Shown here: one piece after another, positions 1 through 3,108 of the stretch
Position numbering within the stretch: the stretch's first letter is position 1
Layout of the letters: each line of letters starts with the position of its first letter
NCBI GenBank assembly: GCA_902790405.1
Contig: CADARW010000001.1
Span: 1-46,220, forward strand
DNA length: 46,220 nucleotides
From: an uncultured Bacteroidia bacterium
Lineage (GTDB): Bacteria; Bacteroidota; Bacteroidia; Bacteroidales; ML635J-15
Direction of reading: 5' to 3'
Position numbers and translations under genes: made by a program
Notes under the pieces: model-generated
Seen by the model: only the letters and a program-made list of their open reading frames with translations
The model's database searches: none
What the model was told of the DNA's origin: nothing

Positions 1-160
1 ATGATGGAATAAAAATATCACAGCATATTAACCGTTCGATTTTACAACGACACTTGCCATAAACAAATTTTCTTCTGTTTCCATTTTCTGCAAGCCTTGT
101 AATGGTTGTGAATTTTTCAAAAAAAATCCCAAGATTTATTTCCCCTGTACATATTTTTTG

Positions 161-168
161 TACTTTTG
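161..168 (+). promoter_or_regulatory. Bacteroidetes -7 promoter box (TACTTTTG) for the orphan cassette
   Basis: Exact TAnnTTTG consensus in an AT-rich context, followed directly by a hairpin that could mark the transcript 5' end. Confidence 0.6.
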
Positions 169-171
169 TCT

Positions 172-486
172 CGTCATACATTGCTTTTCGTTATGATGGG
201 CGGTATGGCAGACATATAGAAAGACGTTTACTGACGTTTTCCTTTGACGCTTCAAAACTTCGCAACTTTTGGAACATCTGTCAAAGAAAAAGCAGCGGTG
301 AATATCTGCGTTAGTGTATATTGGTAATGCATCAATAATAACACAGCGTGGGCTTCGCGTTGCTCAATCTTACAGATGTAGGCAATGCGAAGGCCGTGAA
401 GCGTGGGAGCGAGTAACAAGATTCCCACGTTTTTCTTTTTTGTAGTTACCGTTCTGGGGAGTCGGCGGAGAAAAAAAGAACATACA
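172..486 (+). ncRNA. Putative structured 5' leader / attenuator RNA
   Basis: Stems: CGTCATA/TATGATG (172-198); CTTTGAC 242-248/GTCAAAG 280-286 with inner TTCAAAA/TTTTGGA; GGCTTCGCGTTGC 351-363/GCAATGCGAAGGCC 382-395; AAGCGTGGGA 399-408/TCCCACGTTT 423-432 followed by a T-run. GC-richer than the downstream genes. Confidence 0.55.
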
Positions 487-1152
487 ATGACTTTAGAAGA
501 AATTTTCGGTTTTAATCCAAATTGTGTAAAAGTAGAGAAAGAATTGCTTAGTGATGGTTCAATCTATACAGGAGAAGCCAAAATAATAAATGCTAATTAT
601 TTACCAAACGGTTTCGGCAAAAAATACATAAGCAAAGAAGTCGAAATTACTGGTTTTTGGCGCGATGGATATATGAATGGGGTGTGTTATATAAATATGC
701 ACCACTCAATGGTAACAGGGCATTTCGTAAACAACAGACCAGATGGATGGTGTTTTAGTGTTGATAAGCGTGGTTTCATATTTGGCGTATTCAAAATAGA
801 TGATTGCGTTTGTTCTTTAGGAGATGCTGTTACTTGGATGGTAAGAAACACGGATGGCGGATTAAAAATCAGTTCTGCCAAAAAACAAATTCTAATAGGA
901 GAAATTGAAAACAATCAAGCCAAAGGATTTCACTTTATGAATAATGGTGATTTGTATGTGGGTACGGATAATTCTAATTTGGACAAAACTGGATATTTTT
1001 TCAAGTTTACGAACGACGGATATATACAGATTGGATATTTTGAACATGGCAATTTTGTCAAACGTTTATCTCCCAAAGATGTTGTAGAAGCAAATGGAAT
1101 TTCGTCTAGTTTGTTGACTGTTAGCATTGATACTAATAAAAAATATTTTTAA
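487..1152 (+). CDS. Hypothetical protein with MORN-repeat-like motifs
   Basis: DGSIYTGE...PNGFGK, ITGFWRDGYMNGVC, VTGHFVNNRPDGWC and NGDLYVG resemble MORN repeats. ATG at 487 is preferred over GTG at 403, which lies inside the terminator-like hairpin. Confidence 0.65.
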   Translation: MTLEEIFGFNPNCVKVEKELLSDGSIYTGEAKIINANYLPNGFGKKYISKEVEITGFWRDGYMNGVCYINMHHSMVTGHFVNNRPDGWCFSVDKRGFIFGVFKIDDCVCSLGDAVTWMVRNTDGGLKISSAKKQILIGEIENNQAKGFHFMNNGDLYVGTDNSNLDKTGYFFKFTNDGYIQIGYFEHGNFVKRLSPKDVVEANGISSSLLTVSIDTNKKYF

Positions 1153-1167
1153 CATATATTCGAGATT

Positions 1168-1998
1168 ATGGGAATTTTAGACTTTTTTAGTAGCGAGAAG
1201 CAAAATAATAACCAAAATAATTTGTTTTCAAAATCAGAATTAGAAAACCTAATTCAGATCCTTTCGAAAATAAGTTACATTTTTCAAGAATCAGGAAGTA
1301 TTATTGGAGGAAGAAGCGAAAAAATGATGAGTACAACTCGTTCATACGCAGGCATTCTCGGTTATTTTTATGAAATAGAATATGGGTATGGAAAAATGAT
1401 AGACATAGTAGATAATAATATTGCCAACCATTATCTTTTAGTAAAGTCTGCAATGTTTAATAATGAACATAAGAAAAGAACAATCAGTGAATTGTCTAAC
1501 AATTGGTCGGATATATTGCAAGTGATTTTTAATTTTGAATTGGATTCAAATCCGATTGGAAATAAGTTTAAAACAATGCAAAACGACATTCAAAAAGTAA
1601 CTGAAGCCTTTGAAAAACTTTCGGGAACAAAATGCAGGAAACCGCAAAATCCGCTAGACACAAAGCCCAAAAACATAACATACAATCCATATAATATTAC
1701 AGAAGATCCTATGCTTTCCCGAGGACATACAATTCCTGATATTACTAGTGTTTTTGCTCAAGAATTGATTCCGTTATTATCGTCAGCACAGTCATACGGT
1801 AGATTATCAAAAGACACGGTCGCTAATTATGCAATATCTATGGTAAAGTCATATTATGAAAATGCAGGTTTTGTTCCAATGGTAATTATAGACCAAATTA
1901 CGGGACAAATTAATCAAGTAACGGATATGTTTCAAAAAATATCATATTCACCGTATTCGTCTCTAAAAGAATATGTTTTAAGCAAAATTTACAGATAA
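1168..1998 (+). CDS. Hypothetical protein (AT-rich orphan)
   Basis: 276-aa ORF, 15 bp after the previous stop, AT-rich codon usage; no family recognised. Confidence 0.7.
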   Translation: MGILDFFSSEKQNNNQNNLFSKSELENLIQILSKISYIFQESGSIIGGRSEKMMSTTRSYAGILGYFYEIEYGYGKMIDIVDNNIANHYLLVKSAMFNNEHKKRTISELSNNWSDILQVIFNFELDSNPIGNKFKTMQNDIQKVTEAFEKLSGTKCRKPQNPLDTKPKNITYNPYNITEDPMLSRGHTIPDITSVFAQELIPLLSSAQSYGRLSKDTVANYAISMVKSYYENAGFVPMVIIDQITGQINQVTDMFQKISYSPYSSLKEYVLSKIYR

Positions 1999-2030
1999 CA
2001 AAAATATTATTAATAAAAAAAGTAAACAAA

Positions 2031-2660
2031 ATGACAGAAACCGAACAATTTGTTGTGGAAGCAATGGCACAACTTTCAATGGGAAATGATGGTGATGCAA
2101 CATACCATCCGCTTTATAAGGCTTGGCGCTCTTATACAAATAATCCTGGACAGTTAAATCGCATTCAAGATTATGCACGTTACGGAATGGGATTGTCAAT
2201 ATTTTTATCATACGAAACCATTTCAGATATTGACATAAAACAACAGATAGCATCTATTTCGTATATGTGTATTAGTAAAGCAATAAGGAACAATCCTTCT
2301 AATGTGAATTACCGTAAGAATCGTTTAATTCTGATGCTTTGTAATCATGAAGCATTTGAATATACAGTATCATCTGTTGTAAACAAAGGCAGAAGTATTA
2401 TTTTTGCAAATAACATGCGATTTAAAGCAAGGGATGCTATGTTCAAAATGGAATTTTATGACCTTTCTTCTAACAAAACCTTGCTCAATATTGATATGTT
2501 TTATTCAAAATATATTGACTTGAAAGAAAAGATATCAAATAACTTTTTTGGGTATAACGAAACTGAAGCAACGTTTATTAGAGATGGCGAAAAATTGCAT
2601 AAGGATATTTTAGATTATATTGAGGACAAAGTTTTGGTTGATGGTGACATTGATTTCTAA
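2031..2660 (+). CDS. Hypothetical helical protein (possible single TPR-like hairpin)
   Basis: 209-aa ORF with an A-rich translation initiation region; YMCISKAIRNNPSNVNYRKNR loosely resembles a TPR turn. Confidence 0.65.
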   Translation: MTETEQFVVEAMAQLSMGNDGDATYHPLYKAWRSYTNNPGQLNRIQDYARYGMGLSIFLSYETISDIDIKQQIASISYMCISKAIRNNPSNVNYRKNRLILMLCNHEAFEYTVSSVVNKGRSIIFANNMRFKARDAMFKMEFYDLSSNKTLLNIDMFYSKYIDLKEKISNNFFGYNETEATFIRDGEKLHKDILDYIEDKVLVDGDIDF

Positions 2661-2704
2661 ATGACATTGTTTTTTATATTGATCATGTAGGATTTTCAGT
2701 TCGT

Positions 2705-2756
2705 CGTGTCGGATTTGTACTCCGACACGGTTGAATATAAGCATTTGTAATGTGCA
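2705..2756. repeat. Small palindromic repeat element
   Basis: Perfect 9-bp stem CGTGTCGGA-TTTGTAC-TCCGACACG followed by a degenerate second ATTTGTAAT unit. Confidence 0.5.
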
Positions 2757-3018
2757 TATCGCTAAAAACAATGTCTTTTACAAAATGATATGATGCAATT
2801 TATTTTTAAATTTTCCATCTTCCACCACGAGACTGGCGGTGTTTCTCCCACTAAAATATGTTACGGTTGCACTTCCCACAGACTAAAATTGATTACTCTT
2901 GACAGGACGATGGTAAGCGATGATTCGGGGATTTTGTAGATAATGCTGTGCACCGCAGATTGCGGAGATTTCGCAACGGAAAATCGTGAAGGAATAAAAA
3001 TATTTGTGTAAAACAATC

Positions 3019-3048
3019 TGTAGCGACACAATGCATTGCGCCGCTACA
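3019..3048. repeat. GTAG-type REP-like palindrome, copy 1
   Basis: TGTAGCGACACAATGCATTGCGCCGCTACA, an imperfect palindrome similar to 21476-21505. Confidence 0.7.
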
Positions 3049-3108
3049 ATATTGTGTAACAATTAATAATTCGAGGTAAAAATCTTTTCCTTCAGTACAT
3101 TTTTTATG

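Follow-up and report, generated by a model that had tools for sequence, protein, structure and literature searches.

A multi-copy leader RNA with two conserved, mutually exclusive folds ahead of low-GC accessory genes in gut and rumen Bacteroidales

Layout of the locus

The DNA analysed here (the window) comprises 46,220 nucleotides (nt) of contig CADARW010000001.1 (assembly GCA_902790405.1) from an uncultured Bacteroidia bacterium of the order Bacteroidales. Close to its beginning, at positions 161-486, lies a stretch that an earlier note, made from the sequence alone, had described as a structured leader with a built-in terminator and alternative pairings. Every sequence feature listed for this stretch is present, namely the -7 promoter box, the hairpins, the T-run at 430-441 and the ATG at 487, and three open reading frames (ORFs) follow on the same strand (Table 1). 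We find that it is a copy of a genuine RNA family of gut and rumen Bacteroidales, multi-copy and so far uncatalogued, which is about 270 nt long to the U-run and about 300 nt long with a hairpin that follows it, and that two mutually exclusive folds of this RNA are both kept by selection.

The window starts at the contig end, with the view 5' of the leader limited to the 160 nt before the -7 box. The box has the form TAnnTTTG, which is the Bacteroidetes -7 consensus. The guanine plus cytosine (GC) content is 0.41 in positions 151-450, compared with 0.28-0.37 in the genes that follow (600-2700) and about 0.50 in the host genes from 3150 onward, and the leader is GC-richer than its genes, as had been remarked. 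Within the leader AGCGTGGG occurs twice, at 345-352 and 400-407, confirming a direct repeat, and ACATCTGT (274-281) is exactly complementary to ACAGATGT (372-379). Inverted-repeat arms are found at 237-248/280-291 (92%), 350-363/382-395 (86%) and 399-408/423-432 (90%).

The segment 169-445 has a predicted minimum free energy (MFE) of -97.1 kcal/mol, against -68.67 +/- 5.03 kcal/mol for shuffled sequences (z = -5.65, none of 200 as good). Its minimum-energy fold is a single long rod and not the four hairpins drawn by the earlier note; the rod is also the conserved fold, and the four hairpins stand as a local alternative state. Some of them had to be redrawn. The first is present, but according to the MFE fold it is better placed at 169-212 than at 172-198, and the terminator hairpin, which is present together with its U-run, has a shorter stem than proposed (403-408/423-428, at most 402-410/420-429 with a bulge) and a loop of 9-14 nt. 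This loop is longer than in textbook terminators, and a simple terminator scan covering loops of 3-8 nt did not list the hairpin. A conserved hairpin at 221-240 was absent from the earlier list. The 5' hairpin P1 was folded in 61 copies, with 50 distinct sequences among them, and the median z over the copies is -3.35 relative to mononucleotide shuffles.

Table 1. Features of the window copy of the leader and of the genes behind it; pairing statistics refer to the alignment of 67 copies.
Feature	Position	Strand	Segments and remarks	Basis	Cells paired (%)	Pairs with two-sided types
-7 promoter box	161-168	+	TACTTTTG (TAnnTTTG)	sequence read		
P1, 5' hairpin	169-212	+	sequence and length differ among copies	MFE fold		
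Ha, local hairpin	219-240	+	221-228/233-240; strand 219-227 alternatively in helix A		95.7	
Helix A	219-227/427-435	+	alternative to Ha 5' strand and terminator 3' arm		93.9	2/9
Hb, local hairpin	242-286	+	242-248/280-286; loop carries V1a, Pb 5' strand and V2a		98.7	
Rod	247-404	+	V1, Pb, V2, R4 and interior			
Rod, V1	247-254/397-404	+			95.3	6/8
Rod, Pb	258-264/386-392	+			99.3	4/7
Rod, V2	274-281/372-379	+				
Rod, R4	284-287/368-371	+				
Rod interior, helix	292-297/358-363	+				
Rod interior, inner helix	304-311/346-353	+			90.6	4/8
Rod interior, apical hairpin	~319-337	+	variable			
H3, local hairpin	350-395	+	V2b in loop; rivals Pb for 386-392	inverted-repeat list		
T, terminator-like hairpin	402-441	+	403-408/423-428, then U-run 430-441		95.1	4/6
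S1	420-463	+	terminator loop end and 3' arm, 420-426, with DS loop, 457-463		93.4	7/7
DS, hairpin after terminator	449-468	+	stem 449-452/465-468; loop with GGGGAGUC			
ORF1	487-1152	+	221 amino acids, MORN-like	ORF list, Pfam, protein atlas		
ORF2	1168-1998	+	function unassigned			
ORF3	2031-2660	+	function unassigned			

An uncatalogued RNA family of gut and rumen Bacteroidales

Homologs collected across rumen and gut Bacteroidales genomes, including metagenome-assembled genomes (MAGs), and across metagenomes amounted to 93 pooled instances, four truncated ones having been dropped beforehand, and gave 67 distinct cores. The window's own genome contains a second copy of the leader, 72% identical, on another contig (C116). 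A first set of 61 related genomes contained 24 with a match at E <= 0.01, at up to 6 places per genome, part of these matches being weak or limited to the promoter module. At E <= 1e-8 the core (212-470) matched 12 of the 38 remaining members of the genus and none of 18 genomes from four sister genera. Exact matches to the most conserved 24-mer occurred at 43 loci in species-representative genomes and at 34 in metagenomes, and these loci were pooled with those from the window's own genome and its relatives. The genome loci belong mostly to rumen or ruminant-gut MAGs titled Paludibacteraceae, Salinivirgaceae, Bacteroidales or Bacteroidia; the other carriers among them are two Alloprevotella MAGs and one short contig binned as Neisseriaceae, which duplicates another locus. 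Of 151 genomes chosen at about one per family across the order, 18 were matched by a covariance model of the 3' domain (342-472). Besides the window's genome, nine genomes were matched at E < 1e-10, one genome has up to 7 copies, and matches near E = 1e-3 may be due to chance because the calibration of this model is rough.

The family is not a named one in Rfam, as the earlier note had suspected. Rfam 15 gave no match at gathering thresholds in the whole window, and at E <= 10 positions 1-700 matched only rox1, ceN53 and permuted tmRNA, all far below threshold. In ten other copies no model matched the core; the single hit, to DUF805b in copy L052, lies outside it. The leader is likewise not found in collections of mobile DNA, as blastn against plasmids and phages returned no match to it and the exact 24-mer scan of viral contigs no locus. 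In the literature consulted, supplements and figures aside, no description of the leader RNA was found, and the passages of a 2026 preprint on noncoding families that were available contain nothing resembling it.

The promoter module of the window copy (about 60 bp, 100-170) also recurs without the RNA core, at 86-94% identity, at three places elsewhere (G009:C90:3027-3077, G034:C21:6891-6946 and G028:C6:75870-75936), and modules of promoter plus P1 are combined with cores differently from copy to copy. Upstream of the second leader in the window's own genome, about 60-150 nt before its promoter, there is a tandem repeat of TTGGCAATTTGAGG (L002:920-1010, on C116), which could represent binding sites or iterons.

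A long rod supported by compensatory changes

The alignments consist of near-invariant blocks broken on each side by two short hypervariable blocks. These hypervariable blocks pair with each other: an alignment-free parse, which succeeded for 32 of 44 copies, yielded 20 distinct V1 and 20 distinct V2 arm pairs, nearly all of them perfectly complementary. The complementarity between 274-281 and 372-379 pointed out in the earlier note is the V2 helix, one of the helices of the leader that covary most strongly. The exception is copy L004 (L004:611-902, - strand), in which V1 and V2 are mismatched, with duplex energies of -0.4 and -1.7 kcal/mol. Its 5' half resembles L005 and its 3' half L026, so that either recombination between copies or a chimeric assembly has produced it.

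We counted the pairs of the rod and the terminator in alignment A2 (40 sequences, 51 pairs). In this alignment 92.5% of cells pair, compared with 82.1 +/- 0.4% after shuffling, and two-sided changes occur in 27 of the 51 pairs and in 241 cells, compared with 70 +/- 6.9 cells after shuffling; for neither measure was any of 500 shuffles as high. When partners are slid, the share of paired cells drops to 41-49%, and the covariation score of 0.375 falls to 0.058-0.092 with partners slid by 1-3 columns. Compensatory changes in A2 thus support a conserved secondary structure, as an attenuator or riboswitch-type RNA would have, and in the 67 copies the covariation extends to the terminator helix (Table 1).

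The kind of pairing also identifies the folded strand. Cells with G.U far exceed cells with A.C in the 67 copies (193 against 4 in the inner helix, 116 against 0 in Ha, 84 against 10 in helix A and 42 against 13 in S1), indicating that the + strand is the one that folds. Since the promoter, the U-run and the genes are on this same strand, an RNA is favoured over a palindrome acting as DNA.

A second, local fold is also under selection

The local hairpins Ha and Hb pair in nearly all cells of the alignment (Table 1), and divergent copies keep Hb with changed sequence (CUUAGC/GCUAAG, UCUUCGGC/GCCGGAAGA and CUUUGG/CCAAAG). Hb and the rod cannot coexist, as 280-287 has two alternative partners, 242-248 in Hb and 368-373 in the base of V2 and R4. 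A similar choice at 403-404, between 247-248 and 427-428, sets the end of V1 against the bottom pairs of the terminator. The pairing of 247-248 with 403-404, which removes 2-3 terminator pairs, is possible in 65 and 66 of the 67 copies.

Coordinated substitutions keep both folds. Five relay sites (372, 281, 247, 404 and 427) are linked by a chain of competing pairs, 372:281, 281:247, 247:404 and 404:427. The window has A, U, A, U and A at these sites, and copies L121, L123 and L130, which are divergent ones recovered with the covariance model, have G, C, G, C and G; this five-site change preserves the rod pairs 281:372 and 247:404 together with the local pairs 247:281 and 404:427. Copy L114 is intermediate, with G, C and G at the first three sites, then U404 (in a G.U pair) and A427. 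Segment order and adjacency were checked in the divergent copies. Position 224, where some copies have G in place of A, likewise covaries with each of its two partners: among the 67 copies the pair 224:237 is AU in 49 and GC in 18, and the pair 224:430 is AU in 46, GC in 16 and GU in 2. An anchor parse of 20 copies showed that the segments pair with both partners despite differing in sequence, and one copy, L135, gave no Hb duplex. The inner part of H3 (356-363/382-389) is conserved as well. It is noticeable that segments with two partners are near-invariant and that the cores of V1 and V2, which have one partner, are hypervariable, a distribution explained by the constraint of two folds. Both folds are kept by selection, and the leader thus does have alternative pairings, as the earlier note had proposed from a single copy.

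In the window copy the energies of the two folds lie close together and shift with the length of the transcript. With the 3' end at 395 the local fold and the rod are at -74.1 and -73.2 kcal/mol, at 404 they are at -75.6 and -84.7, at 429 at -86.7 and -91.2, at 441 at -92.5 and -96.0, and at 486 at -102.7 and -103.7 kcal/mol. In the rod-constrained fold ending at 429 the terminator is reduced to 405-410/420-426 and 427-429 are unpaired. Unconstrained folding of the 67 copies gave Hb in 59-64 of them when the 5' half was folded alone, and the rod in 53-60 when the full RNA was folded.

Pairings within and across the terminator

At least seven T are present in the 11 nt after the 3' arm of the hairpin in 62 of the 67 copies, the five exceptions being divergent or truncated. 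Beyond the U-run, the loop of the hairpin DS can pair with the loop end and 3' arm of the terminator, a pairing that we call S1. In the alignment-free analysis, 59 of 62 parsed copies have an S1 partner 21-47 nt further on with an energy below -6 kcal/mol, and the mean S1 energy is -10.28 kcal/mol for cognate combinations, -8.01 for non-cognate ones and -5.35 +/- 1.92 for shuffled ones. At least four sequence types of S1 occur, AGAUUCCC:GGGGARUC, ACGAACUCC:GGGAGUUUGG, ACGGRUUCC:GGAAUCCGU and CAGGUUCUC:GGAGAACYU. In 52 of 59 copies this partner belongs to a hairpin loop that is closed by a stem of 4 bp or more. This DS stem itself is found in 25 distinct versions (for example CCGC/GCGG, UUGC/GCAA, GCAGA/UCUGC and GUCUU/AAGAC), and its loop in the main type is GGGGARUC, complementary to 420-426. 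Judged from sequences, the S1 pairing is well supported though not beyond doubt, and as it spans the terminator, it argues that a read-through RNA exists and is under selection.

The real competitors of the terminator are the base of V1 (247-248/403-404), helix A and the DS loop (457-463/420-426). The earlier note had instead named the upstream AGCGTGGG as the second possible partner of CCCACG in the terminator's 3' arm. This pairing (345-352 with 424-431) shows two-sided changes in 3 of 8 pairs among the 67 copies, but in alignment A3 it shows none, and there 89.6% of its cells pair compared with 88.9% after shuffling, with 53 of 500 shuffles as high.

Other candidate pairings were tried and rejected. 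RNAalifold on the first alignment of 20 sequences proposed 222-233/296-307, which has no cognate advantage (-10.97 against -11.48 kcal/mol) and is at most a transient fold of the 5' half. Pairing of UCUUAC (368-373) with GUGGGA (403-408) is weak and consists mainly of G.U pairs. The U-run and the A-rich start region show no consistent pairing, and the mean unpaired probability from -20 to +10 around the start is 0.43. A separate observation concerns the loop of Ha (UUACU, 228-233), which is complementary to AGUAA of the terminator loop (411-417) in most types; at 5 bp, and with a single candidate for a compensatory change (UACUG:CAGUA against UACUU:AAGUA), this match is too short for a conclusion.

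Promoter, first gene and cargo

The leader occupies a fixed place between a promoter and a gene. In 62 of the 67 copies the core motif is preceded, at a distance of 45-70 nt (median 64), by a TAnnTTTG box, and no such box was found within 70 nt after the terminator in any of 49 copies. In 38 of 44 copies an ORF starting with ATG begins on the same strand 49-176 nt past the hairpin; two further copies have a frame starting with GTG at this position, and the remaining four are unparsed or truncated. The hairpin and U-run thus separate the promoter from the first gene, and no second promoter box follows them. This supports the view that the element is a structured RNA of the + strand with its own promoter and a terminator-like hairpin ahead of genes.

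In the window, Pfam gave only weak matches for the three ORFs, to MORN (E 0.098) and to Ntox35 (E 9.2e-5), the latter in ORF2 with 23.5 bits, just below the cut-off of 23.6 bits. The protein atlas placed ORF1 with MORN-type clusters at 0.93 and had no usable match for ORF2; NCBIfam returned nothing for ORFs 1-3, and ORF3 has no match in either Pfam or NCBIfam. The ORFs are separated by 15 and 32 nt, and these gaps contain no repeat. The low-GC island (1-3100, GC 0.28-0.41) borders host DNA with a GC content of about 0.50 from 3150, and a terminator-like hairpin is present on the - strand at 3018-3049. The long ORF beginning at 3106 may encode a GH92-like protein.

Genes directly behind the leader in other copies form a heterogeneous accessory set, often surface-related. 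Pfam assigned 29 first ORFs to BspA-type LRR_5 (7), MORN_2 (3), DNA methylase (1), Lcl_C (1), DUF6565 (1) or no family (16), and NCBIfam added HxsD and a phage non-structural family. Many first ORFs have starts resembling signal peptides. In two well-assembled relatives, which are two species, the leader heads different cargo at one shared chromosomal location, beside genes for flavin reductase, ferritin and rubrerythrin (L111:9188-17190 and L112:7045-14059), and this location looks like an island hotspot. One of the pair encodes a 911-residue MORN_2 protein, and the other a PIN-domain protein and a helicase behind an AAA ATPase and a helix-turn-helix (HTH) gene. Another copy is preceded by genes for an integrase, an HTH protein and a resolvase and followed by lipoprotein-like genes.

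Genes upstream of the leader vary by locus and include a ParA-like gene, an AAA ATPase with an HTH gene, a nucleotidyltransferase and core genes. No gene recurs beside the leader in the five contexts examined, with no genome-wide partner search made, and there is thus no sign of a dedicated partner. The two leaders of genome G010 enclose 47 kb of DNA in which a reverse-transcriptase (RVT_1) gene is followed by a VWA-domain gene (L110:10810-13798), with a Zeta-toxin-like gene nearby (L110:5828-6403).

A bistable attenuator as the proposed mechanism

We favour, with a probability of roughly 0.55, the reading that the leader is a bistable attenuator transcribed from its own promoter into low-GC accessory genes. 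We infer that the choice of fold sets termination, and likewise which fold is the ON state and that some factor or condition biases the choice. During transcription Ha and Hb would form first and H3 next, with V2b in its loop facing V2a in the loop of Hb. A meeting of these two loops would probably nucleate the rod, which could then zip from V2 through Pb to V1 before the 3' arm of the terminator emerges, so that G403 and U404 would already be taken. The pairs A247-U404 and C248-G403 would in this way capture the bottom of the terminator's 5' arm, and the residual hairpin would be three bases farther from the U-run, leading to read-through. A greater distance between hairpin and U-run should weaken intrinsic termination. 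Otherwise the local fold (Ha, Hb, H3 and T at 402-429) would persist, transcription would stop and an RNA of about 270 nt would be released. In the read-through RNA, helix A and S1 would use what remains of the terminator and lock the rod.

Several observations weigh against the bistable attenuator. The rod is already 9-11 kcal/mol stabler once V1b has been transcribed, and fast refolding would mean constitutive read-through and no regulation. The relay covariation is limited to three fully changed copies and one intermediate, and elsewhere the antiterminator pairs 247:404 and 248:403 are invariant. In the outer part of H3 pairing is lost where Pb covaries, with 353:392 paired in 39 of 63 copies and 45 A.C cells. 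S1 is weaker in A3, with two-sided changes in 3 of 7 pairs and 5 cells, and owing to a G-run it still pairs in 91.1% of A3 cells when slid by -1. A longer antiterminator, 233-248/403-419, was rejected, as it has no cognate advantage (-6.65 against -6.27 kcal/mol). The cargo genes have no common function that would point to a signal. The sole support from an RNA library is a bovine metatranscriptome contig of 222 nt, which covers 209-420 with 4 differences and may be due to DNA carry-over; a further contig, covering 445-658, is from a run guessed to be RNA. The four public runs compared all consist of assembled contigs, whose ends and gaps in cover carry no weight.

A broader reading, which we put forward as a tentative possibility, is that the leader represents a new class of portable kinetic RNA switch. 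An island promoter and a leader of about 300 nt would together time a kissing-loop-to-rod isomerisation against RNA polymerase, and elongation speed, a NusA- or NusG-type factor, an alarmone or temperature would gate surface and defence genes of foreign origin. As 'zip codes', the hypervariable arms of V1 and V2 would then prevent cross-pairing among copies in one cell, and the released rod might also target sibling leaders in trans, with 420-426 as its seed. Since the leader heads islands with BspA-type, MORN-type, DNA methylase and PIN-plus-helicase genes and many genes without an assigned function, it may serve more generally to gate genes acquired by horizontal transfer. Gut and rumen communities are dominated by Bacteroidales, of which very few cis-regulatory RNAs are known. 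The leader also offers a large bistable RNA in which both folds are legible from coordinated substitutions and in which co-transcriptional folding and control of the terminator are testable by a few point mutants.

Alternative explanations

An independent, trans-acting small RNA (sRNA) is unlikely but fares best among the alternatives. In this explanation the rod of about 270 nt is the product, its 420-426 bulge pairs with the DS loops of sibling mRNAs, and the genes are expressed by leak. The hairpin and U-run in 62 of the 67 copies would release such an RNA, and in the predicted released rod the U-run pairs with 214-227 in 24-54 of the 67 copies, leaving 418-426 unpaired. The metatranscriptome contig, limited to 209-420, fits this product, but it is uninformative on transcript ends. 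The orientation and spacing of the downstream ORF are fixed, with no promoter box in between, as described above, and the complementary loop lies 21-47 nt downstream on the same strand, where cis pairing would beat trans pairing. The sRNA is made less likely because the terminator's 3' arm covaries with the hairpin beyond it.

Quite unlikely, in our estimate, is a processive-antitermination leader of the put, EAR or NusG-paralogue type, which would bind a protein or the polymerase and override both its own terminator and those of the cargo operon. The leader does head multi-gene, low-GC islands, its large near-invariant stretches would suit a binding surface, and the terminator follows directly on the folded domain. 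The invariant segments are, however, already explained by two RNA partners, the five contexts examined contain no recurrent partner gene, and no Rfam family of this type matches window positions 1-700 at E <= 10.

A metabolite or ion riboswitch, with the internal loops of the rod as the aptamer and the hairpin and U-run as the expression platform, would account for the conserved, covarying core, the terminator, the alternative pairings and the nearly invariant internal loops. We regard it as very doubtful, as the downstream genes are heterogeneous (the 29 first ORFs, and besides these HxsD and the PIN-plus-helicase set) and the occurrence is patchy and island-borne.

The probability of an element acting at the DNA level (an integron-like or rAID-1-like recombination site, a single-strand promoter or origin, a transposon end or a miniature inverted-repeat transposable element) is negligible: the leader is a long, imperfect, multi-copy palindrome ahead of low-GC cassettes, one copy adjoins an integrase and a resolvase, and L004 is chimeric between two variants, but its pairing is strand-asymmetric instead of symmetric (G.U cells, mismatches on the opposite strand, far exceed A.C cells), promoter and U-run are always on the same strand, plasmids, phages and viral contigs hold no match, its own genome has 2 copies only, 4 of 5 contexts lack a recombinase directly upstream, and the two short gaps between the window ORFs lack a repeat.

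Comparison with known systems

As a bistable attenuator, the leader shares with trp- and pyr-type attenuators, riboswitch platforms and the T-box its position as a 5' leader, a hairpin and U-run before the first gene, and mutually exclusive pairings. It differs from them in having no Rfam match to these leaders and no leader peptide, tRNA-binding or known aptamer features that we could see. The rod, as its competing fold, extends over about 190 nt, helix A and S1 bring in sequence from beyond the terminator, and the leader is present in multiple copies ahead of unrelated accessory genes.

The put, EAR and UpxY/LoaP leaders are also structured RNAs at the head of horizontally acquired or surface operons with a terminator to overcome, but the leader described here has no sequence or model match to them, no NusG-like gene is found in the contexts examined, and an effect on the polymerase would be hypothetical. 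Like the leader, 6S RNA is rod-shaped and about 200 nt long; in contrast to it, the leader has no Rfam hit to 6S RNA, is multi-copy, stands on the same strand ahead of genes and covaries with the downstream mRNA.

The rAID-1 orphan-immunity clusters, as described in the passages available from Ross et al. (bioRxiv 10.1101/471110), share with the leader-headed islands the low-GC, co-directional genes, a conserved non-coding head, MORN-type cargo and occurrence in Bacteroidales. According to the same passages they have a XerD-like recombinase directly upstream and repeated sequences between the ORFs. Membership of such an integron-like array is not supported for the leader, as the loci examined show no recombinase directly upstream and the window has no repeats between its ORFs; the upstream side of the window is cut by the contig end, and the leader may yet correspond to the post-recombinase motif of that study. 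At the one locus with an integrase, the latter is separated from the leader by the HTH and resolvase genes.

A further likeness concerns DUF805b (RF02914, clan CL00115). The covariance model of this family matches the divergent copy L052 (L052:1770-1804, - strand; 45.7 bits against a gathering threshold of 35.6, E 4.4e-10), and the motif there lies between the hairpin and U-run and the start codon, the place that DS takes elsewhere. The DS of the window has no match to it at E <= 10 and the loop consensus GGGGARUC differs, so the window copy is not a member of DUF805b.

In mechanism alone, the leader resembles the HIV-1 dimerisation site and the CopA/CopT pair, RNAs that pass from a kissing loop to an extended duplex: its V2a, in the loop of Hb, and V2b, in the loop of H3, are exactly complementary over 7-9 nt, and the extended pairing would displace both hairpins. 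The leader differs in carrying the two loops on one molecule, and its isomerisation from the local hairpins to the rod is a predicted step.

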